Virus record (IMG/VR): IMGVR_UViG_3300046477_000550
Length of the DNA: 64,000 nt
Direction: 5' to 3' (one strand)
DNA from: a virus
Positions 18,474 through 48,937 of the stretch are shown here, in pieces. A program made the translations under genes and the position numbers. Position 1 is the first letter of the stretch, and every line of letters begins with the position of its first letter. Below the pieces are notes generated by a model, which saw only the letters and a list, made by a program, of their open reading frames with translations, had not been told where the DNA came from and did not search any database.

Positions 18474-20147
18474 TCAGGCGGCGCGGTTCTCCCACGGCCA
18501 GGCAGCGTCACGGGACGCTTCGAGCAAGGGGATCATCCGGAAGGCGGCGTCGGTGAGCCCGCCGAACGTGTGCCGCTGTCCGTGACCGGATGGCGCATGC
18601 CCGGCCTGGTACCCGGCGAGATTCCAGGTGTAGAGCGGCGTCGTCTGCGGGATGGACTGGTCGACTTCGGCGTGGTCGTGCCCGGCCTGCTCGTCGGTGA
18701 CGATGACGACGCGGTCGTGGCCGTGGAACTCCTGCCGGAGTGCAGCCGCCGTGTCGGTGCCGCCGCCGAGGAACCAGCCGCCGTCCTTCCACTTCTTCAC
18801 GTCGCTGAGGAGCGATCCGCCGCGGGTGAGCGGGAACGCCTTCGTCTTCGCGCCCGGAGCGTCGTTCACGTAGTAGCGGGCGCTGGAGAAGGACACGACG
18901 TCGGCCGTGGCGCAGCGTCGGCCGAGGGCGATCCCGAACAGGGCCGCGGCGTCCCAGCGCATCAGTGACCCGTCCTTGGAGAACGCGTCGTCCATCGAGC
19001 TGGACGTGTCCACCAGGATCAGCGTCCGGCCGCCGAGCTGCGGAATGTTGGCGAGTGACGCGGTCAGCGCCTTCTCCAGTGCGTGACCCCACCGCAGGGA
19101 CGGCGCCGCGTTGAACGCGGAGTAGAACCGCATCGGCAACTGCCGGGACTTCGCGACCTGCTCCGGGTCAGCGAGCATCGACACGACCTGTGCCGCGACC
19201 TTGTCGGAAACTCCAGCCTCGTCGAAGTTGCGCAGGTTCCGCAGCCGGGCCATGAACGGCATCGACGGGATGACCGCCTCCCACGCGGCCTTGTCCATCG
19301 GGCCCTGGAGCCAGCCGGCCACTGCTTCCCAGGTCATCTCCGCCATCGCCAGACGTCCGGGCGCGTCCAGCAGGATGCGGCGCCGGTCGGCCACGGGGTG
19401 CGCCATCAGGTTCGCCCGCCACCGGATTGTCATCAGCGACTCGGAGATCTCTCCGTTGCGGCCGTGGCGGCGGTCGATCGCATGCCGGAACAGGTCGCCC
19501 TGCCACGCCTTGCCCGTAGCCGGGGCCGCATGCACGAGTTCGAGGACGTCGCCGAAGCGGTAGCCCTTGGTCGCGGTGTCGTATTTCAGCAACGACCGCT
19601 CCGAGTAGAGCCGCTGGACGGCGTCGGCGATGCCGCGCTTCACCGGCTTGGGCAGCTTGCGGCCGTAGCGGGACGTCCAGTAGCCGAGCAACTCCCCCGG
19701 CTCGTCAGGACGCTGGAGGACGACGTCGATGACGCGACGGTTCCAACCGCCGTTCGTGGACGCGTCGGCCGCAGTCTCGCGGTTCCATCCCGCAGGGTCC
19801 GCTCCCTTGTCGCCTTCGAGCCGCGCCTTCACGAACTCGGCCGCACCGACGATCGCCGCAGTCCGCATGTTCCCTTCGCCGCGCAGCCAGCCGAGCAGGC
19901 CGACCGTCCACTCGGGGTCTTCGACGGCGAGCTGCCGGACGAGCTGGGTGAAGCGGTCGTCGCGGTCGCCGCCCTTCTCGTAGAACGCGTCCTGGCCAAC
20001 GAAGTTGGAGACGGCGAGCAGGAACAGCTCGGAGCGCGCGTCCCGGAGATGCCCGGTGGCGCCCTGGTGGGTGAGGGTCCGCTCCCCGGTGGTGGTCACG
20101 GGCGAGTGGGCGGCGGGTCGGGTCGAGCGCGTGTTGAAGCGCGACAT
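18474..20147 (-). CDS. rsr: Ro60 orthologue Rsr (TROVE domain plus vWA/MIDAS)
   Basis: 557 aa. TROVE-like N-terminal two thirds, then a vWA domain with the MIDAS motif LILVDTSSSMDD. Start taken as ATG 20147 after GAGGGG. Flanked by Y-RNA-like elements. Confidence 0.85.
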   Translation of the reverse strand: MSRFNTRSTRPAAHSPVTTTGERTLTHQGATGHLRDARSELFLLAVSNFVGQDAFYEKGGDRDDRFTQLVRQLAVEDPEWTVGLLGWLRGEGNMRTAAIVGAAEFVKARLEGDKGADPAGWNRETAADASTNGGWNRRVIDVVLQRPDEPGELLGYWTSRYGRKLPKPVKRGIADAVQRLYSERSLLKYDTATKGYRFGDVLELVHAAPATGKAWQGDLFRHAIDRRHGRNGEISESLMTIRWRANLMAHPVADRRRILLDAPGRLAMAEMTWEAVAGWLQGPMDKAAWEAVIPSMPFMARLRNLRNFDEAGVSDKVAAQVVSMLADPEQVAKSRQLPMRFYSAFNAAPSLRWGHALEKALTASLANIPQLGGRTLILVDTSSSMDDAFSKDGSLMRWDAAALFGIALGRRCATADVVSFSSARYYVNDAPGAKTKAFPLTRGGSLLSDVKKWKDGGWFLGGGTDTAAALRQEFHGHDRVVIVTDEQAGHDHAEVDQSIPQTTPLYTWNLAGYQAGHAPSGHGQRHTFGGLTDAAFRMIPLLEASRDAAWPWENRAA

Positions 20148-20183
20148 GAAAAAGCCCCTCACGTGGAGGGGAGGTCCAGCAGT

Positions 20184-20327
20184 GGGTGCCCGAGATCAAG
20201 GTCGGCTGCGGAGACGAAGCGCTCTGGGCCGCTGAGCTACGGAAGCCGTCAGGCTCCCGACGGGATTCGAACCCGCGTCTCTCTCTTAGCAGGAGAAGTA
20301 TCCGCCGCCTGCGCACCGGGCACCCCC
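20184..20327 (-). ncRNA. YrlA-like Y RNA with a circularly permuted tRNA-like module
   Basis: Minus strand shows a terminal helix GGGTGCCCG/CGGGCACCC and a T-arm GCGGGTTCGAATCCCGT (20260-20276). A closed acceptor stem GGGAGCC-TGAC-GGCTTCC lies at 20241-20258 and a D-arm GCTCAGCGGCCCAGAGC at 20221-20237. Ends are approximate. Confidence 0.75.
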
Positions 20328-20333
20328 GATGCT

Positions 20334-20409
20334 GTGCCTCCCGAGATCAAAGACGGGACCGGTATCACTTTTCCAAAGAAGTAACCGGACCCTGCGCACC
20401 GGGAGGTGC
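20334..20409 (-). ncRNA. second, small Y-RNA-like hairpin (YrlB-like)
   Basis: Terminal helix CCTCCCG/CGGGAGG. Shares the motifs CCCGGTGCGCAGG (5' side) and TTGATCTCGGG (3' side) with the larger RNA. Ends are approximate. Confidence 0.55.
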
Positions 20410-20425
20410 ATGAAGTTGTGGCCCC

Positions 20426-20456
20426 ACTCTACTCAGCAAACCGTGTTGCTTGTCCA
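20426..20456 (-). promoter_or_regulatory. candidate promoter for the Y RNAs (TGGACA-N19-TAGAGT)
   Basis: Lower-GC patch immediately upstream of the small Y RNA. The spacer is longer than optimal. Confidence 0.25.
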
Positions 20457-20653
20457 GCAAGTTCCGCGACACCGGCCGCAGACGCGACGAAGCGCCCTCC
20501 ACCGCCCGGAGGCGGCGGAGGGCGCAGTCGTGCCGGTCAGAGGCAGACGAGTACGACGAGGTGCAGGAACAGATGCAGCACGGGGTCACCCCCTTCCAGC
20601 CGGGGCGGACAGGGCAACCGGCATGGAGGGGCAGCCGGTGGCGCGGGGGCCCG

Positions 20654-20866
20654 TCAGTCGTCCTCCTCATACGGCGGCAGGTCGGGCGACAGGAACGGGC
20701 TGATGCTGGGCGCCGGGACCGGCTGCGGGTCGAGGCGCCCCGCACGCTCCAGCGACCCGGCATCGGCCGCCGTGTCGTCGCGGCGCGGCTGGCGCGGGGC
20801 CGGTTCAACGGTGGGCGCCGCGGCGGCGGACCGCCCGGTGACGGCCACGGGTACTGCTCGGGGCAT
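20654..20866 (-). CDS. hypothetical 70-aa protein with acidic C-terminus
   Basis: AGGAGG RBS then ATG, high GC3. Overlaps the 3' end of the collagen-like gene. Confidence 0.55.
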   Translation of the reverse strand: MPRAVPVAVTGRSAAAAPTVEPAPRQPRRDDTAADAGSLERAGRLDPQPVPAPSISPFLSPDLPPYEEDD

Positions 20867-22290: not shown

Positions 22291-23115
22291 TCAGGCGACG
22301 ACGGTGAAGCCGTGTCTCGCCGCGAGCTTGCTGAGGGACGTCTGGCCGGGGATGCCGTCGGCCGAGCTGCCGCTGTAGGAGCCGCCCGCCTTGGAGCGCT
22401 GCCATGCCTTGTAGGCGGTGACGGTGAGGCTGCCGAAGCTGCCGTCGACGTACTGCTGGTCGAGGAGGCCTTCGGCGTGCAAGGCCTTCTCGACGAGGAG
22501 GGTCTCCGCCCGGTAGGTGGCGTGGCCCTGCGCGGCCGACGGGTCCTTCTTCGCCGCGGCCACCACGTGGGCGACGCTGACCTTCGGCTTGGCGGCGGGC
22601 TTGGGGGTGGGCGTGATGCCGAGGATCGCCTTGGCGCGCGCGATGATCGCAGGTCGCTGCGCCTTGATCGCGTCGCCGGGGCATCCGGTGTGGCCGCCCC
22701 AGGCTGCGCCGCCCATGCCGTGCCAGCCGAGGCCCTTGCCGTTGGGGTCGTCGATCGACTGGAGCGGCACCGCGTACTCGGTGTGCAGCCACGCGAGCAG
22801 GTGCGCGGCGTTCTCGACCTGGGAGGCGGTGAGAGCGGCCGGAACGAACCCTTCGTTCTCGATCGACACCCAGTGACTGTTGCCGTCAGCCTCTGCCCAG
22901 GCTCGATCCTTGGTGTCGACGAGCTGGCGCAGGCCGCCGGTCTTCGGGTTGAGGAAGTGGCTGGACGCCTGCGACTTGGGGTTCTTGAACCAGGCCTCCG
23001 ATCCGGCTTCGGTGCCCTGCTGGATGTGAAGGAGGAGGCCACGGACCTCGACCATGCCGTCGACGCGCTTGTTCGGGGTGGGGCCAATGAAGGTGGCCCC
23101 GGGCATGAGCGCCAT
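22291..23115 (-). CDS. endolysin: N-acetylmuramoyl-L-alanine amidase (PGRP/Amidase_2) plus PG_binding_1 domain
   Basis: Motifs GNSHWVSIENEG, GHTGCPG and a C-terminal LVEKALHAEGLLDQQYVDGSFGSLTVTAYKAWQ. Start ATG 23115 after GGAG. Confidence 0.85.
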   Translation of the reverse strand: MALMPGATFIGPTPNKRVDGMVEVRGLLLHIQQGTEAGSEAWFKNPKSQASSHFLNPKTGGLRQLVDTKDRAWAEADGNSHWVSIENEGFVPAALTASQVENAAHLLAWLHTEYAVPLQSIDDPNGKGLGWHGMGGAAWGGHTGCPGDAIKAQRPAIIARAKAILGITPTPKPAAKPKVSVAHVVAAAKKDPSAAQGHATYRAETLLVEKALHAEGLLDQQYVDGSFGSLTVTAYKAWQRSKAGGSYSGSSADGIPGQTSLSKLAARHGFTVVA

Positions 23116-23117
23116 GG

Positions 23118-24065
23118 TCAGGCTCCGTTCGCGTTGTTGCTGGGCGCCCACGGCCGCATCAGATCCGCCAACTCCTGGGCAGCAACAGCCGCCTCAGCCA
23201 GTCGAGGATTCGGAGCAGGAGTGGGCGCGGGAGGAGGGGTCGGCACCGGGACGGGCTGGGGCTGCGGCACGGGGTTGGCGGCGCCGGTCAGCGCCGCGAA
23301 GTCCGTGCCGAGGGTGTACAGGTCGAATCCGGAGATGTCCTTGCCGGACTTCGGGTCGATCATGTCGGGGGTGACGATGACCCAGCCCTCGTCGAAGTAC
23401 TTCCGGAAGAACGCCCAGGTCAGCTTCTGGACGGCACCCCAGGTGACGCACTCCAGTTCGGTCTCGTCGTAGGCGCCGACGGTGACGCAGTGGCCGTCCC
23501 TCGGTGCGGGCGCGCCCTTGACGACGTCCCACCGCTGCCCGTTGTTGAACTGGCTCATCGCGTAGTCGGGGAAGTTGAACCCGCAGTAGATCTGCCCGAA
23601 CAGGGTGATGGCCTGCTTGACCTGGGTCTGGTTGGACAGGTCGACCTTGGCGAAGGCGACGATCTTCTCGCCGAGGAAACCGTGCTTGCGCCAGTAGTCG
23701 AGGACGTCCTGACAGACCGCGCCCTGGTCGGTGTTCGGGTCGGTGGGGTCGTATCCGGTGATCGCCGTGTAGAAGGCGAGCGCCTGGGCGGTGTCGACCT
23801 TCAGGACGGTGCCCTGATTGACGTACACGTCGCCGATCCGCTTGTGAGCCACACCCGCACAGGTGCAGTCGCCGGCAACATCGTTCCCAAGCATCCCCCA
23901 GGCGCTGGCGGGAACCGGGTTGAGCCAGTCCGCCGAGGCGGGCGGGGCGGGCAGTGCGACGGCGTAGTTGCCGAACGCGAGGTGCAGCCGGGCAGGTTCG
24001 GCCGGACGCCGACCGCCCCGGAAGATGATGGTCAAGGGTGGCTCCGAGAGGGCGCGTTGGGGCAT
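23118..24065 (-). CDS. putative papain-like cysteine peptidase (second lysin)
   Basis: GNDVAGDCTCAGVAH nucleophile-like motif with a downstream DGHCVTVGAYD, and a Pro-rich C-terminal linker. Start uncertain. Confidence 0.55.
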   Translation of the reverse strand: MPQRALSEPPLTIIFRGGRRPAEPARLHLAFGNYAVALPAPPASADWLNPVPASAWGMLGNDVAGDCTCAGVAHKRIGDVYVNQGTVLKVDTAQALAFYTAITGYDPTDPNTDQGAVCQDVLDYWRKHGFLGEKIVAFAKVDLSNQTQVKQAITLFGQIYCGFNFPDYAMSQFNNGQRWDVVKGAPAPRDGHCVTVGAYDETELECVTWGAVQKLTWAFFRKYFDEGWVIVTPDMIDPKSGKDISGFDLYTLGTDFAALTGAANPVPQPQPVPVPTPPPAPTPAPNPRLAEAAVAAQELADLMRPWAPSNNANGA

Positions 24066-36105: not shown

Positions 36106-37482
36106 TCAGCTCGTCAGCGACGAGGAGACGCGGCTGATCCGGCCCGTGTACTTCGGCGCCCGCACCGCGAGCGCGCAGTCCGAGACGATCGCGTAGGGCA
36201 TCTGGTCCGGGGCGGACGTCGTCGGATACACATCCAAGGGCTCCAGCTCTCGGACGTAGGGCCGCAGCAGGAACTGGGGGTCGCGGGCGATGAGGTAGAT
36301 GTTCTCCGACCCCGCCGCCTGCGGCTTCATGGCCGCATTGGTGCCCACGTAGGCGGCCGGGATGTTGGCGGGAACGGTGGAGCCGTTCTTCGGGGTGAGC
36401 TTCGCGCCGTCGTCGAGGATCGACGTCGTGAGGATCGGCGTGACACCGTCCGCAGCGATACCGACGGTGGCGTCGACGTAGCCGAGGAACGTCTCCGCAG
36501 TCGTCGCCGTGGACCGGAACACCTTGTACAGGTTCGGCTGCGCGCCGTCGTAGCCGCCCGGCGTCGAGAACGACAGGGTGACCGTCGACGTGGCGCCCGT
36601 GGTGGTCTGGGAGACCTCGACGGACGGCAGGATCTCGCCCTGGCGGGCGATGACCGGCGCGATCTGGTAGTAGTACGTGGCCGCGGCCAGAGTGCCGCCG
36701 GTGGTGGCGGTCGCCGTGGTGACCGCACCCATCTGGTAGGACCGCGCCGACAGGAACGAGCTGGTCACCATCGGGATACCCCGGTAGGCCTGCACGTTGA
36801 GACCCGCGGCGACCTCGGTGGGGCTGAGGTAGCGCTGGTTGGCGATGGCGAGCTGCGCGATGCGCGACTCGGCGGTGGAGGACATGACGAACATCCAGCC
36901 CGGACCGTTGATCTTCATGGCGGCCTGCTGCTCCACCATGTCGATGAGCTTGTCGAGCCAGCCCAGCGACAGCGAGGCGTTCGCGGCGTCGGCCGCGTTC
37001 TGGGTGCCGCCGGAGAACGTGGACACGAGGCTGTCGAGGCCGTCGAACTGCGGGTAGCCGCCCAGCGACGTGGACCCGGAGTTGCCCCACAGGACGGCGT
37101 TCTCGATGTCCCAGTACAGGCCCTGGATGGAGCCCTCGATCTCCTGCGCCCGCAGGTCCCCGGCAAGTCCGCGGGTGACGGCCTGCGCGTAGCCGGTGAC
37201 GGCGCCGACGGACTGCAGGTTGCGGATCGTGAACTGGTTCTGCACGTAGGTCGAGTTGGTGACCGGGCGGGCCCCGCCGTCGGACACGAAGCCGCCTGCC
37301 GCGCGGGCGGTGCGCTGGTTGAAGTAGTAGACGTTGGAGTCCCACTTGCGGGTGGGGATGGCCCGCACGAGGGGGGCGTAGCGCCGCTGGTACTCCAGCA
37401 GCATCGGGTCGACGATGGTCGGGGTGAGGGCGGCTGCGCCTGCGGCGGTCAGCGCCTCGCGGAGTTCGGCCTGGCTGGGCAT
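36106..37482 (-). CDS. major capsid protein
   Basis: 458 aa starting at ATG 37482 after GGAAGG. Position and composition fit an actinophage major capsid protein. Confidence 0.8.
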   Translation of the reverse strand: MPSQAELREALTAAGAAALTPTIVDPMLLEYQRRYAPLVRAIPTRKWDSNVYYFNQRTARAAGGFVSDGGARPVTNSTYVQNQFTIRNLQSVGAVTGYAQAVTRGLAGDLRAQEIEGSIQGLYWDIENAVLWGNSGSTSLGGYPQFDGLDSLVSTFSGGTQNAADAANASLSLGWLDKLIDMVEQQAAMKINGPGWMFVMSSTAESRIAQLAIANQRYLSPTEVAAGLNVQAYRGIPMVTSSFLSARSYQMGAVTTATATTGGTLAAATYYYQIAPVIARQGEILPSVEVSQTTTGATSTVTLSFSTPGGYDGAQPNLYKVFRSTATTAETFLGYVDATVGIAADGVTPILTTSILDDGAKLTPKNGSTVPANIPAAYVGTNAAMKPQAAGSENIYLIARDPQFLLRPYVRELEPLDVYPTTSAPDQMPYAIVSDCALAVRAPKYTGRISRVSSSLTS

Positions 37483-37609
37483 GGTGTTGCCTTCCGGCAG
37501 TGGTGGGTATGGCGAAGCCCCGCGCACGGGGTGCGGGCGGGGCGGCGTGACCATCTCTGCCGAGCGGCACCAGCAGACGGCTGGCGGTCAGGTGGGGCGG
37601 GGCTGCGCG

Positions 37610-39451
37610 TCAGGCACGGTCTCCGAGAATGGCGCTCACGGTCGCCGGGGAGACGTGCGTGCGGAACTCCTCGTCGGTGTACTCGTGGAGCGGCTTCGCG
37701 GGCCAGCCCTCAGGGAGGCCCGCACCGGCGACCGGCGCAGTGTGCTCGGTGACCGGGGCGACGAGACCCTTGCGGGCCGGCCCGCCGGTCGCTTCGACGT
37801 GCTCCTGCACGGCCTTCGGCAGGGCGGCGGCGAGACCTTCGGAGACGAGGCGGCTGATGCGCTGCTCTTCGGTCTCGGCCACCTCCGCCGCAGCCGGGGC
37901 CGCGGCCTCGACGACGGTGTCGGCCGCCGGAGCGGACTCGGTGGTGGGTGCCGGAACGGCGGCCGGGGTGACGGCGGCGAGGAGCTGCTTGAACTGGTCG
38001 TCGGTCAGGTGGACCCCACCAGCGGCGGGGGCGGCGGCCGTGTCGGCTGCCGGGGTGGTGGACTCCGCCATGGCGGGCTCCTCTTCCTGGGTGGGGGTTT
38101 CGGCGACCGGTGAATCCGGCGCCGGAGTCTGGGTGCCGCCGTCGGCCAATCCAGCGGCAACAGCCGAACCGCTCTCGGCGAGTTGCACAGTCGGCGACTC
38201 AACGGCGGTCTCCATCGCGTCGTCGTCCTCGCCCATGCAGTGCACGCACTGGCCCTCGGCGCACTCGCACGGGCAGGCGCCAGGCGTCTCGGGGATCGCG
38301 CAGCCGCAGTCGCACGGGCACGGGGCGCCCGCGGCGGTCGCCGGTTCGTCGCCGTCCGGCGAACCCGGGGTGTCGACGTCGCCGTCCATGTCCGGGTCGA
38401 TGTTCGCCAGGGTCTGGGCGGCACCGGCCATCGCAGCGCGGCCGACGGCGTCGAGGTCGTGGGGGTCGAGCGAGTACGAGGAGACGGTGACCGTGGTCGG
38501 CCCGTTCGTCAGCGACACGTACAGGTTTCCGGCATCACCGGAGTCCATGCCCCAGCACTCGGCGAGAGCCTCGGTCACCTGGATGGCGGGCTCGATCAGC
38601 CAGCCCTCTTGGGTGTCGACCGTGACGCCGAACTTCTTCAGGGCCTTGACGATGCGCTGCTTGATCCGCTTGAGCTGGGCGGAAGTGTAGTCGCGGGCGT
38701 TATCGGCCTGCCCGATGTACGCCCATGCGGCTTTCGCCTTGGCCTTACTGGAGATGTCGTAGCGCTGCTTCTTGTCGGACTGGTAGCCCGGGTCGGCGTA
38801 GGCGGTGCTGTCTCCGGATAGGCCTGAGCCGCGCTTCGACACGGCCGGAGTGTCGGCCTCGGTCGTGGTGGTCACCAGCGCCTCCTGTACTGACTCATGG
38901 ATCAGCACCCGTCCGTCGGATGCCGTCTCCGCCGGGGCGCTGGCGGCCTCCGCGGGGGTGAATGTGTCGACCTGAGCGCCGGGCACGCCGGGCTTCCTCG
39001 TGAAATCAAGCCCATCGAGTTCCAAGTCGTCACTGGTCTCAACGGGCGAGCCGTCTGGTCCCGGCTCCCGCCGCACCTTTCCCACCCACGCCCCGCGGAT
39101 CGACACTCCGCGCAGGAACGGCGGCCCGTCGGTGTCGTCGACGAGAGCGGCGATCGTCTGGCCCGCCACCGTATTCACCAGGTCCGCGGTGTACTTCGCC
39201 GATCCGTCCTCCGCGAGGGTGACCGACGTGAGTCGACCGGCGATCTGCGTGGAATCGTCGTCGGCTGCATGGTGGGTGAGCATCGCCAGGGGCATCGAGC
39301 CCTCGTCGATGCGCTCTCGGGCCCGCTGTACGGCCTTCGCGATGTTCTCGACGGTGTAGAGGCGCCGGTTGCGGCTGATGCCGGGTACGAGCGCGGTCCC
39401 GGAGATGGTGCCGATCCGGCGCCCCATGATGCGTGCGGCCACTGCGGTCAC
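37610..39451 (-). CDS. capsid maturation protease / scaffold fusion
   Basis: GTG overlaps the upstream stop (GTGA). N-terminal prohead-protease-like region (GTALVPGISRNRRLYT...). C-terminal Ala/Pro/Glu-rich scaffold-like region with a Cys-rich insert. Confidence 0.65.
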   Translation of the reverse strand: MTAVAARIMGRRIGTISGTALVPGISRNRRLYTVENIAKAVQRARERIDEGSMPLAMLTHHAADDDSTQIAGRLTSVTLAEDGSAKYTADLVNTVAGQTIAALVDDTDGPPFLRGVSIRGAWVGKVRREPGPDGSPVETSDDLELDGLDFTRKPGVPGAQVDTFTPAEAASAPAETASDGRVLIHESVQEALVTTTTEADTPAVSKRGSGLSGDSTAYADPGYQSDKKQRYDISSKAKAKAAWAYIGQADNARDYTSAQLKRIKQRIVKALKKFGVTVDTQEGWLIEPAIQVTEALAECWGMDSGDAGNLYVSLTNGPTTVTVSSYSLDPHDLDAVGRAAMAGAAQTLANIDPDMDGDVDTPGSPDGDEPATAAGAPCPCDCGCAIPETPGACPCECAEGQCVHCMGEDDDAMETAVESPTVQLAESGSAVAAGLADGGTQTPAPDSPVAETPTQEEEPAMAESTTPAADTAAAPAAGGVHLTDDQFKQLLAAVTPAAVPAPTTESAPAADTVVEAAAPAAAEVAETEEQRISRLVSEGLAAALPKAVQEHVEATGGPARKGLVAPVTEHTAPVAGAGLPEGWPAKPLHEYTDEEFRTHVSPATVSAILGDRA

Positions 39452-39843
39452 CTTCCGATCAGCGCGATGGATGCCTGCGGGTAGACCGGGTTGGTGCCGC
39501 CGAGGGTCCAGGTGACGCGGCCCAGGTTCGGGAGGACCATGGCCGCCGTGCTGGGCATGTGGAGTCCGGCGAACGCGGAGGCACGCCCGGCCGATGTGGT
39601 CATCTGTGTGATCTTCGCGATGGCCGGATACCAGTTGCCGTCGGGGTCCTGCACGTCGAGTCCGACGTCGAGCGTGGGGGTCGTGCCGGTCGGCGTACCG
39701 ACAACTGCGACGGCGAGCCACACATCGCTGATGTCGGTCAGGCTGATGACCGGGCCGTTCGTTGTGGCGGCGCCGGACAGGGTGGGCGGCGTGCCGGATG
39801 GGGTCAGGTTCCACAAGACCCGGGCCGGGCGGTAGATGCTCAT
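39448..39843 (-). CDS. hypothetical head-module protein
   Basis: 131-aa beta-rich ORF. Confidence 0.65.
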   Translation of the reverse strand: MSIYRPARVLWNLTPSGTPPTLSGAATTNGPVISLTDISDVWLAVAVVGTPTGTTPTLDVGLDVQDPDGNWYPAIAKITQMTTSAGRASAFAGLHMPSTAAMVLPNLGRVTWTLGGTNPVYPQASIALIGR

Positions 39844-39856: not shown

Positions 39857-41323
39857 TCATGTGAACCAGGCGGCGAAGTGGCCGAGGTCGACGGATGCGG
39901 ATACGAAGCACCGGCATCGCGGGTGCGCGGGCCACTCCGGCAGGTCGCCGGGCGCCCACGGATTTCCGGCTTCGTTGGCCTCGCAAGCCGGACAGACGCG
40001 GCCGTCGCCGACTGACAGCCAGTCGCAGGTCAGTACGCCTTCGGACTGGTACAGGGCGAGCGCTCCCCCGGCGGCTGCGCTGGTGATGGCCCAGTCGGTG
40101 ATGAAGCCGACGTCGTCGTCCGGATCGTCTTCGTCGGGGGTGAGAGCGTCTTCGGCGGCGTCGGTCATGGTGTCGCGGTCGTCGCCACGGTCGGCGCTCT
40201 GCTGAAGGATCCGGGCGAGCGAGGCTTCTGCTCGCCGGATGAGGCGGGTGAGCCATGTGTCCACGGCTGCGCCTGCGTCGTCGAGGCGTTGCACGTCCTG
40301 GTAGGCGTCGGCGAAGGCGGCGTTCCAGTCGAGGCCTGCGCGTCCTGCCTGCTCGGCGGCGACGGCCACAGCGTTGACCATGCCCTCGGCGTGGCCTGCA
40401 TTGAGGGCGTCCCGGAGTGCGGCGCGGAGGGTGTGCCATGCGGGGAGGTTGGGGAGCGCGGCGAGCATGGCGGTTGCGGCCAGGGCTGCGGCGGTCTTCT
40501 GATCGTCGCTGTTGGCTTCGGTGAGTCCGACGCTGCGGCGGAAACTGTCGACGGTGGCGGTGATCGCGTCGCGGTCGACGAGTTGCCGCCAGGCGTCGGC
40601 GACGATCCGGGTGTGCTCGCGCAGTTTCTCCTCGCGGCGCCGGAAGAGGAGCGCCCACATCCCTTCGAGCTTGCCGAGGTCAACGGCGACTTCGAGGATG
40701 CGCGGATCGTCGGCATACTCGATCGCGGTCTGGACGGCGGCGGTGCTCGCGGCCTTCACTCGTTCCGTGAGCGGGCCTCCCGAGGCGGCCCACCCGGCAG
40801 CGAACGCCTCCCGCGCCGGGGCCGCGATGGGATGTTCCAGTGGGCTGTCGGTGCGGTCGGCGCCGTGGACTGCGGCCAGCGCGGCGAATTCCACCGGGGT
40901 AGCTTCGAGGCGGTCGAGAGGTGACGGCTCGTCGGCGGCGATGTAGGTCACGGTCATGTGGGCGCAATAGCCGTGGTCTCGCGGGATCTGGATGCCTCGT
41001 TCGGCGAGTGCGTCCAGGGTGTCGCGCCGCAGGTCTTCGAGGTCGGACGAGTCGATGAGAGCGACGATGACGTCCTTGTCACCGCCGGTGAAGCGAGCCA
41101 GTCCGGAGATCTGCGCCTTGACCGGCTTGCGGGCCGCCAGCTCTGCGACGACCTCGCGGAACTCGTCGCCATCAATGTCGTCCGCATCACCGAGGTAGAC
41201 GACCGTGACGTGCATTTCGTCGGGCGGGAGGCCGCCTTCGACTGCCAGCTTCTCGGCGACTTCGGGCGGCGGATAGAGGGCGATCATGCAGCCGTCGGAG
41301 TAGTCCGGGGATGTCACGGCCAC
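39857..41323 (-). CDS. 2H phosphoesterase (LigT-like) :: MuF/SPP1 gp7-like head morphogenesis fusion protein
   Basis: N-terminus has two H-x-T-x motifs (HVTVVY, HMTVTY). C-terminus has the MuF-type RVCPACEANEAGNPW...HPRCRC motif. Lies directly after the portal gene. Confidence 0.75.
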   Translation of the reverse strand: MAVTSPDYSDGCMIALYPPPEVAEKLAVEGGLPPDEMHVTVVYLGDADDIDGDEFREVVAELAARKPVKAQISGLARFTGGDKDVIVALIDSSDLEDLRRDTLDALAERGIQIPRDHGYCAHMTVTYIAADEPSPLDRLEATPVEFAALAAVHGADRTDSPLEHPIAAPAREAFAAGWAASGGPLTERVKAASTAAVQTAIEYADDPRILEVAVDLGKLEGMWALLFRRREEKLREHTRIVADAWRQLVDRDAITATVDSFRRSVGLTEANSDDQKTAAALAATAMLAALPNLPAWHTLRAALRDALNAGHAEGMVNAVAVAAEQAGRAGLDWNAAFADAYQDVQRLDDAGAAVDTWLTRLIRRAEASLARILQQSADRGDDRDTMTDAAEDALTPDEDDPDDDVGFITDWAITSAAAGGALALYQSEGVLTCDWLSVGDGRVCPACEANEAGNPWAPGDLPEWPAHPRCRCFVSASVDLGHFAAWFT

Positions 41324-41405
41324 CCCCTACCGTCAGCCGACTCGCTTCTTGATGAGCGGGAGGACGTCCTTTGCCCGCAGCGGGTGCGGGGGTTCCGGTG
41401 GCGGT

Positions 41406-42950
41406 TCAGGCGGCGTGCTCATCGACACCACCTCCCGGCAGTGATTCGAGCGCCTCACACAGGCGGCGCCGGTACAGGTCGCGGGCGGACTCGCGGGGTG
41501 GGTCGGCGCCCGGCGGCGGCTGACCTGCGGCCACCGCCTGCAACTGGGGCGGAACTGGGACCGGTTCCGGCTTCTGGACCGTTACCGGTTCGCCGTGTGC
41601 CGGGTCGGCCGGTTCCAAGGCGGTGCCACGCAGCTTGTTGGCGATGTTCGCCTTGCTCGCAGCGTCCATGTCCGCCCACTTGACCAGGTTTTCCCGGTCC
41701 ACGAGCACGGCCTGGTCGCCACCGTCGACGGCAGGTTCGCCAATGTCGGCGCGGTAGCGGTCGAGCGTCCAGGAGCCGTTACGGAGCCGTGTGTCGCGGA
41801 TCTTCTCGACGGTCTCACTGTCGCGCATGTCGACATCACGGAACTTCAGCTTCCAGCCCTCGACGCCGAACCCGTTCTTCGCCAGGTGGAAGTTGAGGGC
41901 TTCCAGGACCAGTTCGGCGAGCGGCTGGCAGGTGTTGAGCATGAAGGTGCGGTCCTGCGCCTCACCCGTTCCGCCACCCAAGTTGCCGCTTTCGATGATG
42001 CCGACCTTCGACGGGGGCACACCGTAGGAGGCGATGATCTCGTCGCGCTTCTGGTTGAGGAACGCCAGGTAGTCCATGGTGCGGGACTGCGACAGCTCAT
42101 CGACTGTCGCGCCGCCCTTGGTGTTGATCGGGTTGCCGATGTTGCGGGGTCCGATGTTGCGCTGTTGATACTGCGCGTTCCACCGGTTGATGTCCCCCGG
42201 CGAGGCCCCGGCCGGGTGGTCCACGTGCAGGACCGGCGGGCAGCCCTTCCGGAAGATCTCCTTCGACGTAGCAGCCGAGAAAAGCCACGACACGATCGGC
42301 AGCATCGCGGCCTGCGTCGGGCTGACACCGAACACCCCGGAGCGCGGCGAATCCAGCGAGATGTGGATGACGTCGCGCGGCTCGAACGTGGCCCGCTGGC
42401 CCAGCTCGGTCACCTGCACATAGCTGGTGATCGTGCCGTGCTCGTCGGCGATCGGCAGCATCGACGGGCAGTCCAGCGAATACAGGGCCACCGGCTGCTT
42501 ACCGACCCACACCACCTCAATGAACGCGTCACCGAAGACGAGGAGGTCGGTGATGACGCCGCGGAGGATCTGCCGGATGTTCTCCCGCGGATTGCAGTAG
42601 CCGATCATCCGCTCCAGCAGCAGCACCTGCTGCGGCTTGTCCGGCTGCTCGTCGTCGCCTTCACCGTCATCGGTATCCCAGTCGGTGACGAGACCGCCCG
42701 CGGTGATGGTGCGGGAGATGGCGTTGACGGACGCCCACGACCAGGGGCAGGCGAGATAGGCCTCGTAGAGCTGGTTGAGCGTCGAGCGGCGGTCGGACTG
42801 GGTGGCCGCGCCGATGCCCTGGTTGGATTCGGTGAGGCCGCCGGGGCTGATGCCGTACTCGTAGCCCGCACGTTCCGGAAGCTTCGCCGGGGCGGTCTCC
42901 AGTACTTCGTCGCTGGAGCGCAGGCCGTTCCACCAGGTGCGCAGACTCAT
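41406..42950 (-). CDS. portal protein
   Basis: 514 aa coupled to the terminase (ATGA overlap), with portal-like length and sequence. Confidence 0.85.
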   Translation of the reverse strand: MSLRTWWNGLRSSDEVLETAPAKLPERAGYEYGISPGGLTESNQGIGAATQSDRRSTLNQLYEAYLACPWSWASVNAISRTITAGGLVTDWDTDDGEGDDEQPDKPQQVLLLERMIGYCNPRENIRQILRGVITDLLVFGDAFIEVVWVGKQPVALYSLDCPSMLPIADEHGTITSYVQVTELGQRATFEPRDVIHISLDSPRSGVFGVSPTQAAMLPIVSWLFSAATSKEIFRKGCPPVLHVDHPAGASPGDINRWNAQYQQRNIGPRNIGNPINTKGGATVDELSQSRTMDYLAFLNQKRDEIIASYGVPPSKVGIIESGNLGGGTGEAQDRTFMLNTCQPLAELVLEALNFHLAKNGFGVEGWKLKFRDVDMRDSETVEKIRDTRLRNGSWTLDRYRADIGEPAVDGGDQAVLVDRENLVKWADMDAASKANIANKLRGTALEPADPAHGEPVTVQKPEPVPVPPQLQAVAAGQPPPGADPPRESARDLYRRRLCEALESLPGGGVDEHAA

Positions 42951-44469
42951 GGGGCTTCCACCGTCCCCCCGGCGCGCGGCGCGTCATCGTCGTCGAACCA
43001 CCAGGCGTCATCGTTCGGTGCGGTCTCCGCGGGGCGGACGGCCATCGTCGGGCCAAGCGGCTGCAGCACCTCGCCGATGGGCGCGGTCGGAACGTCGTCG
43101 AGGATGACGAATTCCGGGCCGGTGCCGAGGTTGGACAAGAGATAGCGAACAGCGTCGCTCGCATGATCATCTGCTGTGGTGTCGGCGTCCTCGGGGTCGC
43201 CCTTGGTGGCGTGCGGCAGGTTCGACAGCTCCCGGTACAGCTCGGTGACCGTCGAGAACATGTGCAGCTTCGGGCAGGTCGTCCAGCCGTGAGCCCGGTG
43301 GTGCGCACAGGCGGGCGCCTCGCCGAGGTAGGAGTGGACTCGCTGCCAGCCGTTGACGCGGCTCCCGGCGCCCTTGCCGGCCGGGGAGAGGTGTACGCCG
43401 TTGTCGGCGTACACCGAGGAGATCGGTTTGGCGTCGCCGCGGGTGGCCCACATGGCGTCGTCGGCGTACCGCACGGCGACATGTTCGCCGTCGGCTTCCG
43501 CTGCGAGGATCTGCTTGGCCTGCTCGTTTTCGCCGATGCCCCGCTGGTATATCTCCCGGTAGACCCAGACACGGCCGTCTTCGTCAACGGCTGCCCACAG
43601 GACAGCCCAGGGGGCGCTGAAGCCCCAGTCGATGCCGTTGTACCGCCGCCACGAGGCGGGCAGTGCGATCGGCTCGATGACGTGCCGGTCGCGCTTCAGC
43701 TCGGGGAACATCATTCCGGCGAACACGTCCCAGTCACCGTCCAGGAAGGCGGAGCGGAGTTTGCCGTCGAGGGCTTGGAGGTCTTGGGCGTACTCGGGGT
43801 TGACGTGCGGGTTGTCGGACAGCTTGGACGGGATGAAGCGCACGGTGCGGTTGCGGATGTCGGTGACGACGTTCGCCCCGTAGTTCGTGGGCTCGATATA
43901 GCGGGCCTTGACCGCGCCGTGGCCGGGGCCTCCCGGGTTGGTTCCGGAGCGGATCCCGAGGACGGGGATGTCGCGGCGGCCGGAGCGGAGGCGGGACTCC
44001 AGGAAGGAGCACACGTCGGGCGGGGTCAGGGTCCGCTCGTCGAAGATGAGCAGCTGGTACTGGCCGCCCTGACGCCGGGTGGCGTCCTGGACAGTCTCGG
44101 CATACCGGAACATGATCAGGCTGCCGTTCGGGAACCGCAGCTCGTACTCGGTACCGTTCCAGCGAGCCCCAAGATCCTTCGCGAAGTTGAGGTTGACCAA
44201 CTCGGCGATGAGCGACTCTTTCAGCTCGCCGTAGGTGCGGCGGAAGGCGCCGACGCGCAGCCCCGGGTACTGCATACACTCCCGGATCGCGTGCGCGGTC
44301 AGCGCCCTACTTTTCCCCCACCAGCCGCCCCACCGAACAGCACATCGAACTCGGTCGCGGCGTGGAACTCGTGCTGCTTCGGTGTCGGTATGTAGCCGAG
44401 CTGCCCGAATACGTCCTTCGGCTCGAAGGCCTGGGCTGCGAACTCAGCCCATTCGAGGGTGGCGGACAT
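42947..44469 (-). CDS. terminase large subunit, interrupted: needs a -1 shift at 44317-44311
   Basis: The N-terminal 56 codons (AAGGAGG RBS, ATG 44469) end ...FGGAAGGGKVGR-stop. The -1 frame continues GGGKSRALTAHAIRECMQYPGLRV... into the 442-aa ORF 42947-44275. Confidence 0.8.
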
Positions 44470-45609: not shown

Positions 45610-45619
45610 GCCGGCCTCC

Positions 45620-45940
45620 TTACGTGACGGTGAGCTGCCCGATCGGGATGACGGGCTGCTCTGGGTTGTCGGTGATGCGGATGAAGATCGCGTACATGCC
45701 AGGGGTCAGTGTCGGGCCGGTACTGCCAGGGCCGATCAGAACTTGCGCCCGGTAGGCGGTGCTGCCCGAGATCGGGCCGGTGCCGTCCCAGCCGCCCGGA
45801 TACCAGGTCACGGGGCGTCCGGACACTTCGGTGAACGCGAACTCGACGGTGTCGCCGGTCGGGTTGTACGGCTCGCCCTGCATGCTGGCCTTGACTGCGG
45901 CCTCAACGAATTCGCGGGAGGAGCGGTCGATTCGCTGCAC
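45620..45940 (-). CDS. hypothetical Ig-like/beta protein
   Basis: 106-aa ORF. Confidence 0.6.
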   Translation of the reverse strand: MQRIDRSSREFVEAAVKASMQGEPYNPTGDTVEFAFTEVSGRPVTWYPGGWDGTGPISGSTAYRAQVLIGPGSTGPTLTPGMYAIFIRITDNPEQPVIPIGQLTVT

Positions 45941-45959
45941 CCGGCTCCCCCTCTCCTGT

Positions 45960-47210
45960 TCAGTTGTCGGCGTCCCAGCGGGTCCCCGTCAGCTGTGGTT
46001 GCCACCGGCCGGGCCGATCCGAGGCGGCCCAGCCCGGGCCGATGAGTTCGGCCTGCCACCGGGCGGGCCCGTCCTCGGCATCCCACCGGAGGTGAGGGCC
46101 GGTGACGTGGAACAGCGGGGCGGCCTGCCCCCCGGCCTGCCCCCCGGTCGGTACGGCGCCGGTGAATGCCCCGCCGCGGATGGGCAGCAGGCGCCGCCGA
46201 TGCGACCGGACAAACGGCACGGGCCACGCCGCCGCCTGTGCCTGCTGAAGCACGGGGGCGGCTATCCGGCCCCGTCGTGCCGCCGCCACGCGGGTTGCCC
46301 GCCGCGACAGCCACGCGGGCACCCATGCGGGTGCGGTAGGCGCTACGCCGGCGGGCGCGATCCTGGTGAACATGCCGCGGCGTGCCGGGGCCACGCGTCG
46401 TGCAGGCTGCCTGTACGGGGCCTGTACGGGCGGTACGGGACCGGTCGGAGCGGGTGTGGGGGTGAAGTAGTCGCTGCGTCGCCCGCACAGGGGGCGTGGG
46501 CGACGCGCGGACAGGTATCCGGGCGGCGCGGGCTGCTGTGCGGGAGCGGCTGCGGGCTGGGGCGTCCAGGTGAACCGGCCGCGGCGAAGGAACGCCAGCC
46601 GGATGCGCGGGCGGACCGGCTGCGGTGCGGCAGCCGGGGCAGTGCCGGCGGGCGGCACGGGTAGAAAGATGCCGCGGCGCCCACCTGTGGAACGCAGACG
46701 GCTCCGGGAGACCGTACCGGGCGCCCAGGCCGGGGTGGCGGGTGCTGCTACTTGGGGCGGGGTCCAGGTGAACTCGCCCCGGCGTGCGAACAGGGCCCGC
46801 AGGCGCGGGCGCGACATCTGCGGCACCGTCGACGGCTGGGTGGGCGCTGCTGTCGGGGGTGTCCAGGTGTAGTGGCCCCGCTGGGCGGGGAGTGAGCGGC
46901 GGCGCGCGGAGGGCGCCCGGACTGGCGGTGCCGGGGTGAGCCATGGCGGGTCGAAGTAGTCCCGGCGCCGGACTTGGACCAGCCGGACCGTTACGCGCCG
47001 GATGAAGCCGGGGACGGCGGCCGGCGCAGCCGGGGCGGACGGCGGGGGCGGTGCGGTGAAGGAGCGGCCTCGCCGGAGCCACAGAGCCCGGGGGCGCCGC
47101 CCCTCGACGAAAGCCGGAGCCCAGGGCGGCACCTGGGCCGTCTGCTGGGCTGGAGGAACGTATTGGAATCTGCCGCGGCGGACATAAGGGCCGCGCCACC
47201 GCCGCGACAT
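45960..47210 (-). CDS. Arg/Pro-rich tandem-repeat protein
   Basis: 416 aa with about 10 copies of the degenerate unit RRG-x-F-(T)W-TPP...AP. The C-terminus carries RW(D/Q) repeats. An alternative frame is also open. Confidence 0.55.
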   Translation of the reverse strand: MSRRWRGPYVRRGRFQYVPPAQQTAQVPPWAPAFVEGRRPRALWLRRGRSFTAPPPPSAPAAPAAVPGFIRRVTVRLVQVRRRDYFDPPWLTPAPPVRAPSARRRSLPAQRGHYTWTPPTAAPTQPSTVPQMSRPRLRALFARRGEFTWTPPQVAAPATPAWAPGTVSRSRLRSTGGRRGIFLPVPPAGTAPAAAPQPVRPRIRLAFLRRGRFTWTPQPAAAPAQQPAPPGYLSARRPRPLCGRRSDYFTPTPAPTGPVPPVQAPYRQPARRVAPARRGMFTRIAPAGVAPTAPAWVPAWLSRRATRVAAARRGRIAAPVLQQAQAAAWPVPFVRSHRRRLLPIRGGAFTGAVPTGGQAGGQAAPLFHVTGPHLRWDAEDGPARWQAELIGPGWAASDRPGRWQPQLTGTRWDADN

Positions 47211-47217
47211 GGGCTAT

Positions 47218-47685
47218 CTACTCCTCGTACTCGACGGCCAGGACCAGGGAGTGGTTCGCGGGCAGCGCGGTGACCCGGTTGACGAAGACGAGCGGGTTGG
47301 CGGTGCCGACGTCGGAGAGGAACTCCTCCATCAGTTCCCACGGCAGGTCGACGCCGCTCTGGGAGTTGAACGCGACCCGGAAGGCGTCCGCGGCGGCGAG
47401 CGTGGGGGCGACGGACCAGACCGTGTCCAGGCCGGTGATGCCGGACGCCCCGGAGCGGGGATCGAGCCGCTGCCCGGTGACGGTAGTGCTGGCGGTGCCG
47501 CGTGCGGTGCCGCGGTTGATGGCCACCACGACTTGCTGCGAGGTGATCGAGCCGGACGCGACGGCGATACCGAGGGTGACTCGCCGCAGCTTGCAGGCGA
47601 CGGCCGCGGCGGGCACGAGTGCGGCGAAGGCCGTGTCGACGGCGAGCGCCGCCGCGGACGTCACCTGCGCGTTGTAGCGGGCCAT
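47218..47685 (-). CDS. hypothetical beta-rich protein
   Basis: 155 aa starting MARYNAQV. Confidence 0.65.
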   Translation of the reverse strand: MARYNAQVTSAAALAVDTAFAALVPAAAVACKLRRVTLGIAVASGSITSQQVVVAINRGTARGTASTTVTGQRLDPRSGASGITGLDTVWSVAPTLAAADAFRVAFNSQSGVDLPWELMEEFLSDVGTANPLVFVNRVTALPANHSLVLAVEYEE

Positions 47686-47696
47686 TGCGGTCCCTT

Positions 47697-48266
47697 CTAG
47701 AAGTAGCTGCCGTATTGGCTGAGCGTGCTGGGGGTTTTGGTGGCGCTGCCGGCGGACACGTCCGCGCCGGTGAAGTCGTCGAACTTCAACAGGGGCGACG
47801 ATTCGGCGCGGAGGCCGGTGCTGGTTCCGGTCGTAACAGCCGTGTTGGTGACGGTGACGCGGGCGACGTTGTTGACGTAGCCGGTGATCGTCGAGCCGAC
47901 GGCCTGGACCTTGGCGATGTCGCCTGCGACGGCCGCCCCGGCGAAGGAGCCGATGCTGGTGAAGCTGCCGCCGACGTTCGAGAAGAGCACCCACGAGGTG
48001 CCGTCATTTCTCCACAAGTAGCCCTGCGTGAAGCCGGTGTTGCCGCGACACCACACGCCGTGGGAGACGGCGCCGGTGGCGGCGATCGTGGTCTGTGCCG
48101 AGTTGTCGTTGGTGGCCATCGCGGTGGCGGCACGGATGACGATCGTGCCGCCTGCGCTGCCCGGGGAGAGCTGATTGGAGACGATCGTCCAGAGGCCGGT
48201 CCCGTCAACCCAGCCCGCTCCGGGTGCGCCGTTGGCCCGGTTGAAGTCGTCGGTGAAGGTGGTCAC
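47697..48266 (-). CDS. LamG/ConA-like lectin-fold protein
   Basis: GAGGAGG RBS then GTG at 48266. The TTFTDDFNRANG...GYLWRNDGTSWVLF pattern resembles the N-terminus of the 1149-aa minor tail protein. Confidence 0.65.
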   Translation of the reverse strand: MTTFTDDFNRANGAPGAGWVDGTGLWTIVSNQLSPGSAGGTIVIRAATAMATNDNSAQTTIAATGAVSHGVWCRGNTGFTQGYLWRNDGTSWVLFSNVGGSFTSIGSFAGAAVAGDIAKVQAVGSTITGYVNNVARVTVTNTAVTTGTSTGLRAESSPLLKFDDFTGADVSAGSATKTPSTLSQYGSYF

Positions 48267-48300
48267 GACGGCCTCCTCGGGTGGGGCGCCGCGTGGCGGG

Positions 48301-48453
48301 TCAGTGGTGTTGCAGCGTGTGCACGGTCGTCGGCAGCAGCCAGAAGGCGAGCCCCGCGTAGGCCATGCGGTCGCGGTGCGGAACGCTCGCCGGGAGCAGC
48401 GCGGCGAGGACCAGGAGGACGAAGCCGAAGCTGTAGCAGACGATTTCGAGCAC
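48301..48453 (-). CDS. small membrane protein
   Basis: 50 aa, GGAG then GTG, with one or two TM segments. Confidence 0.5.
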   Translation of the reverse strand: MLEIVCYSFGFVLLVLAALLPASVPHRDRMAYAGLAFWLLPTTVHTLQHH

Positions 48454-48467
48454 GGCATCTCCAGGTG

Positions 48468-48635
48468 TCAGCGGCGCCGGATGCTGCGCCAGGCGTGCGG
48501 AACGTCGACGACGAGCAGGCAGCCGACCGCGCACAGTCCGAGCGGCAGCACGACGACGCCGACGGGGACGACTTCGAGCAGCAGGAAGACGAACAGGCAG
48601 GCGGCGGTGAAGGCGAGGCGGGAGCGGGGGCGCAT
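48468..48635 (-). CDS. small membrane protein
   Basis: 55 aa, MRPRSRLAFTAACLFVFLLLEVVPVGVVVLPLGLCAVGCLLVV... Confidence 0.5.
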   Translation of the reverse strand: MRPRSRLAFTAACLFVFLLLEVVPVGVVVLPLGLCAVGCLLVVDVPHAWRSIRRR

Positions 48636-48650
48636 GGTCACCGCCCGTCG

Positions 48651-48722
48651 TTGGCCCGGCAGGACTTGAACCTGCAACTCGCGGCTGGGGGCCGCTGCTC
48701 TGCCGTTTGAGCTATCGGGCCA
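48651..48722 (-). tRNA. non-canonical tRNA-like gene (5-nt or C33 anticodon loop; Gly-CCC-like at best)
   Basis: Acceptor TGGCCCG/CGGGCCA, D-arm GCTC-AAACGGCA-GAGC and T-arm GCAGG-TTCAAGT-CCTGC look normal. The anticodon arm is GCGGC-CCCCA-GCCGC, and there is an extra nucleotide at positions 8-9. Confidence 0.55.
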
Positions 48723-48774
48723 AAGCGACCGCCGGTTCGCGGGGCGAAGATCCGCGACTAACCGGCGACCACCC

Positions 48775-48859
48775 GAGGACGCTCTAGGCCACTGAGCTAC
48801 CAGCAGGCCGCGCGCGGCCCTTTCTGTGGCTGGACGGGATTTGAACCCGCGCCTTCCCC
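48775..48859 (-). ncRNA. circularly permuted tRNA-like element, paralogous to the tRNA-like module of the Y RNA at 20.2 kb
   Basis: Minus-strand order: GGGGA, AGGC, T-arm GCGGG-TTCAAAT-CCCGT, CCAGC, GC hairpin GGCCG-CGCG-CGGCC, GCTGG, TA, D-arm GCTC-AGTGGCCTA-GAGC, G, TCCTC. A 38-nt nested hairpin follows at 48730-48767. Confidence 0.6.
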
Positions 48860-48863
48860 TACG

Positions 48864-48937
48864 TTGGCCCGCCAGGTCTCGAACCTGGCGCCTCCGCCTT
48901 ATCAGGACGGCGCTCTAACCAGATGAGCTACGGGCCA
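48864..48937 (-). tRNA. tRNA-Ile (GAU), no encoded CCA
   Basis: Clean cloverleaf: acceptor TGGCCCG/CGGGCCA, D-arm GCTC-ATCTGGTTA-GAGC, anticodon arm CCGTC-CTGATAA-GGCGG, T-arm CCAGG-TTCGAGA-CCTGG. Confidence 0.85.

Follow-up and report, generated by a model that had tools for sequence, protein, structure and literature searches.

The viral record IMGVR_UViG_3300046477_000550 of IMG/VR is the source of the DNA analysed here, a stretch of 64,000 nucleotides that we refer to throughout as the window. At three places on its minus strand, it encodes features connected with RNA: the gene rsr, which specifies a Ro60 orthologue and is preceded by two Y RNAs; a head protein gene in which a 2H phosphoesterase domain is joined to a MuF-like part; and a small tRNA cluster that includes an orphan RNA resembling the tRNA-like module of the Y RNA YrlA. 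The initial annotation had located these loci and proposed that they constitute a single counter-defence unit. Profile, covariance-model and fold evidence bears out the anatomy, whereas comparison with related genomes speaks against such a unit and suggests instead three modules that are gained and lost separately. The features concerned are the following, R1 being a covariance model built from an alignment of 18 homologous loci.

18474-20147, minus strand: rsr, a Ro60 orthologue with TROVE and vWA domains (Pfam TROVE, phrog_850, MIDAS motif)
20155-20171, minus strand: terminator-like hairpin with CTTTTT after it, separating the Y RNAs from the start of rsr
20186-20321, minus strand: YrlA-like Y RNA (R1, 152.7 bits; RNAalifold; below the gathering score of Rfam YrlA)
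20337-20405, minus strand: short, YrlB-like Y RNA (R1, 46.4 bits; conserved in 16 loci)
39857-40834, minus strand: MuF/SPP1 gp7-like head morphogenesis part (C-terminal part of phrog_2662; gene position)
40835-41323, minus strand: 2H phosphoesterase domain, residues 1-163 of the same protein (PF13563, E 2e-11)
48650-48722, minus strand: aberrant tRNA (RF00005, 44.6 bits; ARAGORN, Gly(CCC))
48723-48774, minus strand: long hairpin (about 21 bp by its fold) that separates the orphan module from the aberrant tRNA
48775-48863, minus strand: orphan permuted tRNA-like core of YrlA type (Rfam YrlA, 30.5 bits, E 1.7e-4; R1, 34.4 bits)
48864-48937, minus strand: canonical tRNA-Ile(GAU) (RF00005, 60.3 bits; ARAGORN)

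Distribution of the three loci among related phages

Judged from its relatives, which are Streptomyces prophages and soil viral contigs of approximately 80-90 kb, the window is part of the genome of a temperate Streptomyces siphophage, probably of about 90 kb. A contig scan with a single-protein query yielded only three loci, and a genus-wide genome search was used instead. For the 11 phages and prophages that share the head module of the window and cover the relevant region, the presence of the three loci is given below in the order Rsr with Y RNAs, 2H domain on MuF, and tRNA cluster.

Window: yes; yes; yes
G002: yes; yes; no
G051: yes; yes; no
G033: region outside the record; yes; no
G209: no; yes; no
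G263: no; yes; no
G052: no; yes; no entry
G044: yes; no; no
G043: no; no; no
G050: no; no; no
G048: no; no; yes

The three loci are found together in just one of the 11, the window itself, and nearly every other combination occurs. For example, G044 (100% complete) encodes an Rsr 79% identical to that of the window and a MuF protein without a 2H domain, while G043, which is complete with terminal repeats, encodes neither Rsr nor 2H. In G051, Rsr and 2H-MuF are located 20 kb apart, and in both G209 and G263 the sole Rsr is 60-61% identical and encoded on another contig from 2H-MuF. The tRNA cluster is absent from G002, which is about 75% identical to the window over 18.5-50.4 kb, as well as from G033, which shares 95% and 89% nucleotide identity over 36-48.3 kb until homology breaks at 48265 and which contains no tRNAs. 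Beyond this set, a MuF relative was present in three of the 32 Rsr-bearing viral records, two of these three having the 2H domain, and Rsr was present in one of 18 further MuF-bearing records, that one lacking 2H. Likewise, PF13563 was found in none of the five cultured Rsr-bearing actinophages examined, which belong to five clusters. Co-occurrence of the three loci is no more than chance, so that the proposed unit does not pass the test that the initial annotation itself had set, and because the relatives gain and lose them independently, we consider it quite likely that the three modules are inherited separately and do not form a functional unit.

Several points weigh against this interpretation. 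Firstly, the samples are small and many viral records are fragments, such that the absences apply to records that are complete or that cover the region in question. Secondly, the window, G002 and G051 share both Rsr and 2H-MuF, and a weak association within this one sublineage may exist, which is equally explained by descent. Thirdly, the general link between Rsr and tRNAs is real, though in the window the tRNA cluster lies 28 kb away from rsr. In the lytic actinophages GiJojo, Atuin, Neville and VanLee (loci L074-L078, a set that also includes Kela), rsr resides inside tRNA arrays; in Kela, it adjoins a gene for an ATP-dependent RNA ligase (gene 137, PF09414), and in Neville a gene for an RlaP nucleotidyltransferase (gene 85) is close by.

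The last observation is also an argument for the original proposal, according to which Rsr and its Y RNAs, a virion-borne 2H enzyme and the tRNA-like cluster would jointly buffer the phage against host abortive-infection nucleases that cleave tRNA or rRNA. All three parts do touch or mimic RNA, and published surveys group these very functions as a phage RNA-repair repertoire, in which phage tRNAs, TROVE proteins with tRNA-like partners, RNA ligases and 2H enzymes are discussed jointly (Iyer et al. 2021, Viruses, PMC7824862). The window resembles such jumbo-phage repertoires in that components of the same kinds occur within one phage genome, but it differs from them in that no ligase or kinase was found, the components are dispersed, and they are gained and lost independently. 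More broadly, a survey of the window open reading frames (ORFs) that were scanned revealed no RNA ligase, RtcB, polynucleotide kinase or cyclase, and the three loci are spaced 20 and 8 kb apart in different transcription units. With the parts assorting independently even in close relatives, and with the 2H domain missing from all five cultured Rsr-bearing actinophages, we regard joint action of the three loci as very improbable. LigT-type enzymes, which the 2H domain resembles, generate 2'-phosphate ends that RtcB cannot join, and a LigT-type 2H enzyme may for this reason be no substitute for RtcA/RtcB. Nor is the combination itself undescribed, as had been supposed, since both the RNA-repair repertoire (PMC7824862) and 2H-MuF fusions (PMC5512222) have already been published. 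As a kit, the three loci would consequently hold no significance, their parts being independent and each of a described kind.

The explanation that we favor envisions three separate accessory modules, each situated at a typical variable spot of a phage genome. A cassette of two Y RNAs and rsr, presumably transcribed from a promoter of its own, occupies the interval between the lysis genes and the integrase; a LigT-like 2H domain has been grafted onto the N-terminus of a MuF-like head protein; and a small tRNA operon resides in a hypervariable region upstream of the packaging genes. The latter comprises a working tRNA-Ile and a degenerate tRNA, with an orphan YrlA-type mimic of the tRNA elbow and a hairpin between them.

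The orphan YrlA-type module of the tRNA operon

The orphan core inside the tRNA operon is the only feature of the window that we could not match to anything described. The initial annotation had recognized this middle element of the cluster as a paralogue of the YrlA tRNA-like module, an assignment that is corroborated by its matches to both Rfam YrlA and R1 (E 5e-5 for the latter), in each case through the core only, which R1 aligns at high posterior probability. The core begins after a 4-nt spacer from tRNA-Ile, is closed by a 5-bp stem (GGGGA/UCCUC), and consists in order of the T arm, an acceptor-like stem (CCAGC/GCUGG) that is closed by an insert of 24 nt with a G+C-rich hairpin in it, and finally the D arm. 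In its T arm and acceptor stem, the orphan is almost identical to the YrlA RNAs at loci L014, L015 and L029. The orphan lacks the anticodon-like hairpin, and the Ro-binding terminal helix, which is common to all of the Rsr-linked Y RNAs in this study, is absent as well, with the corresponding model positions aligning poorly. Two other identities for the orphan were rejected: a permuted tRNA gene, given the 24-nt insert that closes the acceptor stem and the lack of an anticodon loop, and an attP-type tRNA fragment, given the lack of an integrase nearby.

The aberrant tRNA of the same cluster passes the gathering score of RF00005 and has the same acceptor stem as tRNA-Ile, one extra base past the stem and a 5-nt anticodon loop, which becomes a 7-nt loop with C33 if one G-C pair is opened. 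Much like other phage tRNA clusters, locus 3 is a short tRNA operon that is located in a variable region and includes a canonical tRNA. It is distinct from them in holding a permuted, non-chargeable, YrlA-homologous core and a long hairpin between its tRNAs as well as in the 5-nt anticodon loop of its second tRNA. The surrounding segment (48265-53754) is hypervariable and contains several small ORFs in addition to the tRNA cluster; in the 95%/89% identical relative G033, these 5.5 kb are replaced by 1.7 kb of unrelated DNA.

Outside the Rsr loci, R1 detected one comparable match, which is located in G048 (IMGVR_UViG_2541046981_000004; 70 kb, 82% complete) within a cluster arranged as tRNA-Met(CAU), orphan core, hairpin and tRNA-Trp(CCA). 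Between the window and G048, the orphan core is 93.3% identical without any indels, the hairpin 90.4% and the downstream tRNA 84.7%, as compared with 76-78% for the head genes, 61% for the upstream tRNA and 54-68% for the flanks. The upstream tRNA is a different isoacceptor in the two phages (Ile in the window, Met in G048) and has thus been swapped while the core was kept. Judging by its G048 counterpart, tRNA-Trp(CCA), the aberrant tRNA of the window is a degenerate version that has lost two anticodon-loop bases and has U33 replaced by C. Of the six substitutions in the orphan core, each either lies in a loop or changes a G·U pair to A-U, such that no helix is disrupted, and all three substitutions in the hairpin stem keep pairing. 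Because the substitutions are placed in this manner, the comparison argues for purifying selection on the orphan RNA, a conclusion drawn from two sequences only.

We estimate the chances that the orphan core is a functional RNA of some kind to be somewhat better than even; it is probably a tRNA-mimic RNA released from the tRNA operon. Such an elbow mimic could be liberated by ordinary tRNA processing enzymes and might then act, as either a decoy or an adaptor, on a host factor recognizing the shape of tRNA, with host Rsr, a tRNA-modifying enzyme and a tRNA-targeting defence enzyme as candidate factors. The stronger proposal that the core and hairpin (48723-48863) represent a new class of phage tRNA-elbow mimic, maintained by selection independently of a phage Rsr, is one that we consider tentative and on balance rather doubtful.

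A different role would be that of a third Y-type RNA working with Rsr, of either phage or host origin, which would link the first and third loci and leave the 2H protein separate. The clear homology of the core to YrlA modules, exemplified by the near-identical T arm and acceptor stem mentioned above, is consistent with such a role. Furthermore, an Rsr of about 61-64% identity, unlinked to any 2H-MuF prophage, is encoded by 7 of the 17 Streptomycetaceae genomes checked, and a host partner for the orphan could therefore exist where the phage has none. However, the orphan is devoid of the terminal helix, an invariant feature of all the Rsr-linked Y RNAs in this study, and Rsr was not found in G048, an 82% complete record and the sole other phage record with the orphan. 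For these reasons, we find participation in an Rsr complex improbable.

It is slightly easier to envision, though still unlikely, that recombination once brought in a tRNA/Y-RNA array of which the orphan module and the aberrant tRNA are the leftovers, now in decay and without a function. The neighboring tRNA with its 5-nt anticodon loop does look degenerate, the cluster is absent from the closest relatives, and the orphan module was not found in 401 Streptomyces species genomes (BLAST, with two candidates scored per genome), in INPHARED (blastn), by a metagenome pattern scan, or in IMG/VR by an exact-core pattern. Decay is difficult to reconcile with a core that is 93% identical between phages otherwise 76-78% identical, with six out of six core substitutions located in loops or preserving pairs, and with an upstream tRNA that was exchanged while the core stayed. 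The general association of Rsr with tRNAs and RNA repair may account for the origin of the orphan core, which we continue to regard as a probable functional mimic. A YrlA-type mimic that is separated from Rsr, is without the Ro-binding helix and is nonetheless conserved at 93% within a tRNA operon suggests that the tRNA-like module may function in its own right, which is a standing question for bacterial Y RNAs.

A D-arm pattern search of IMG/VR likewise retrieved G048 only. When IMG/VR was scanned for a T arm followed by a D arm, no second orphan of the same type was recovered; most matches were YrlA RNAs linked to Rsr, ordinary tRNA genes lying side by side and YrlA-like RNAs from other lineages. 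We also encountered YrlA-like permuted tRNA modules with different closing helices at the IMG/VR loci L079, L082, L088, L089, L093 and L099, which belong to viral contigs with no Rsr relative in the stretch covered, as well as odd arrays of tRNA-like pieces at L095, L113 and L127.

The 2H domain and its MuF-like head protein

The second locus is a single gene (39857-41323, minus strand) for a protein of 488 residues, which directly follows the portal gene in the minus-strand order and precedes the protease/scaffold and major capsid genes. Both HxT motifs of the 2H domain are present, as HVTV at residues 38-41 (H38-x-T40) and HMTV at residues 122-125 (H122-x-T124); they are conserved in 34 homologues, among which H38, T40 and H122 are invariant. 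Besides PF13563, the domain has below-cut-off matches to TIGR02258, LigT_PEase and Acb1, the last of these (PF23474) at 21.3 bits against a cut-off of 27, with 24 of the 34 relatives matching it at E <= 0.1. In an AlphaFold2 model with a predicted local distance difference test (pLDDT) score of 90.9, the closest Foldseek matches of the 2H domain are 5h7e, 1iuh and 5ldm (probability 1.00), which are LigT-type cyclic phosphodiesterases including LigT of E. coli. Viral 2'-5' phosphodiesterases, a Burkholderia phage phosphodiesterase, the poxvirus cGAMP phosphodiesterase and Acb1 are all ranked lower, and the match to Acb1 (7t27) is weaker than that to LigT.

The C-terminal 325 residues are weakly identifiable as a MuF-like head protein. 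They match TIGR01641 over positions 3-105 of 109 at E 4e-4 and 19.5-20.7 bits (cut-off 39.65), PF04233 is matched in 11 of the 34 relatives (best E 3.6e-4), and the same part also matches the C-terminal part of the portal-MuF family phrog_2662. The 2H segment is absent from G048 as well as from eight IMG/VR relatives (L058-L065), all of which match from about residue 161 onward, and the stretch missing from G048 corresponds exactly to window positions 40814-41332. From these alignments, the 2H domain is a detachable addition on the MuF-like protein. More than 100 homologue clusters, mostly from Streptomyces and annotated as "2'-5' RNA ligase family", show the fusion to be common, and fusions of 2H to MuF or portal proteins were described earlier (Iyer et al. 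2017, J Bacteriol, PMC5512222).

The window protein resembles those fusions (PMC5512222) and the anti-CBASS nuclease Acb1 (PMC9117128) in having a 2H domain with two HxT motifs on a head protein encoded beside the portal gene, and in a predicted delivery with the DNA followed by action on RNA ends or nucleotide signals. It differs from both in the placement of 2H N-terminal to MuF and from Acb1 (Hobbs et al. 2022, PMC9117128) in being nearer to LigT-type cyclic phosphodiesterases in sequence and fold. Presumably, the protein travels within the virion and is active at an early stage of infection. As to its role, we assign the greatest weight, a little short of an even chance, to the degradation of defence nucleotide signals, the preferred targets being nucleotide second messengers or species with a 2',3'-cyclic phosphate that function in host defence. 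Alternatively, the domain could heal RNA ends by opening 2',3'-cyclic phosphates on cleaved tRNA for resealing by a host ligase. Its top structure and profile matches, LigT-type RNA 2',3'-cyclic phosphodiesterases (5h7e, 1iuh and E. coli LigT; TIGR02258), are in line with this possibility, as is the sub-threshold score of the Acb1 profile. However, a ligase or kinase partner was not seen in the window, cyclic-nucleotide phosphodiesterases of phages and poxvirus are included among the fold matches (9q2g, 9ciw and 7t27), and the authors of the earlier 2H-MuF/portal study noted no association with RNA ligases and favored either an RNase role or the degradation of 2'-5' or cyclic defence nucleotides (PMC5512222). 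We therefore view RNA-end healing as fairly unlikely, and the rest of the probability falls to roles other than these two.

The Rsr cassette and the surrounding genome

At the first locus, rsr is open from a GTG at 20162, with the ATG at 20147 as its likely start. The encoded protein matches TROVE PF05731 at E 1.8e-14 (54 bits, cut-off 23) and phrog_850 end to end (residues 24-558, E 3.5e-50). The defining mark of a vWA domain, the MIDAS motif (DxSxS), is found in its C-terminal vWA as DTSSS at residues 385-389. Relatives of 41-83% identity occur in 32 IMG/VR loci and in cultured actinophages, and the protein is also annotated in cultured Streptomyces, Gordonia and Arthrobacter phages. Both Y RNAs are located 40-260 nt upstream of rsr on the minus strand and have a terminal helix sequence in common. 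The YrlA-like RNA is composed of this terminal helix, a second helix, an anticodon-arm-like hairpin, a T arm, a closed acceptor-like stem and a D arm, in that order, while the short Y RNA is without the tRNA-like module, keeps an invariant terminal helix across 16 loci and has a minimum free energy z-score of -2.4. RNAalifold detected compensatory changes in 14 of the 34 pairs of the YrlA-like RNA among 18 homologues, with variation concentrated in the acceptor-like stem, which is the most variable, and the second helix. In the anticodon-arm-like hairpin, the loop CUGCUAA is conserved and the stem covaries between CUC/GAG and CCA/UGG. This hairpin and the adjoining T arm account for an artefactual ARAGORN call of tRNA-Ser(GCT) at 20251-20324 (minus strand), which was discarded.

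Against Rfam YrlA (RF02553), the YrlA-like RNA scores 25.7 bits, which is under the gathering score of 69, and it is a diverged actinophage branch of YrlA. Actinobacterial phages have already been known to carry Rsr with YrlA-like RNAs (Chen et al. 2014, RNA 20:1715, PMC4201824). As in those bacterial and phage systems with YrlA and YrlB, a TROVE and vWA protein is encoded beside Y RNAs, one of which has a tRNA-like domain consisting of a T arm, a D arm and a closed acceptor-like stem. The window cassette is distinguished by its order (Y RNA, Y RNA, rsr), by its residence in a temperate Streptomyces phage, by the lack of rtcBA and by a YrlA that adds the anticodon-arm-like hairpin with its conserved 7-nt loop and remains below the Rfam gathering threshold.

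The arrangement of two RNAs directly upstream of rsr recurs in more than 25 IMG/VR phage or prophage loci. Nearly all related loci retain the sequence of the terminator-like hairpin between the Y RNAs and rsr, the 3' half of which (GAGGGG) could act as the ribosome-binding site of rsr. A strict sigma-70 scan detected no promoter for the cassette; conservation discerned solely by eye points to a candidate upstream of the Y RNAs (TGGACA, a 19-nt spacer, TAGAGT). By analogy with bacterial Rsr/Y RNA, the cassette would yield a Ro ribonucleoprotein that handles structured or damaged RNA. The more than 25 loci, together with their covariation, define a Streptomyces temperate-phage cassette consisting of a putative promoter, a short Y RNA, a YrlA-like RNA, an attenuator-like hairpin and rsr, and this family offers a clean system in which to ask what Ro and Y RNA do for a phage or lysogen. 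Six larger relatives (G018, G022, G024, G025, G029 and G031, the sources of loci L016, L020, L023, L024, L028 and L031) have 6-8 Y RNA model matches each, several of them in tandem beside rsr, although the weaker matches may in part be ordinary tRNA genes. One Y RNA at L023 has its tRNA-like insert in the normal order (D arm, anticodon arm, T arm) rather than permuted.

The window has a G+C content of 68.8%, and from about 16 kb to 64 kb nearly all genes are encoded by the minus strand in an order typical of a temperate siphophage. The principal landmarks are listed here.

16011-17138, minus strand: tyrosine integrase
22291-23151, minus strand: amidase
down to about 24 kb, minus strand: tail genes
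36106-37554, minus strand: major capsid protein
37610-39814, minus strand: protease/scaffold
41406-42950, minus strand: portal
42947-44275, minus strand: terminase (phrog_2)

A megablast search of INPHARED with the rsr region found no close cultured phage, and the cultured relatives of the portal protein are only distant. In addition to the integrase, a second tyrosine recombinase is encoded about 5 kb away on the plus strand (9663-10964), and around and between the two are a helix-turn-helix repressor-like gene (8723-9277) and a GntR-like gene (12131-12604). Since its sequence at 6.5 kb corresponds to the arm at the far right of the G002 provirus, the window looks like the non-integrated form of the genome, either circular or from a virion. 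The large terminase frame is broken within the Walker A motif (44299-44323, minus strand), where the upstream frame ends in FGGAAGGGKVGR followed by a stop and a body of 442 codons resumes in another frame past a GGGGGAAAAG run; this could reflect programmed slippage, a sequencing error or a broken gene. Lastly, the early region encodes a protein with an Mrr-type restriction endonuclease domain (59079-59696, minus strand; PF04471, E 2e-22), which adjoins a 744-residue protein without a family match.

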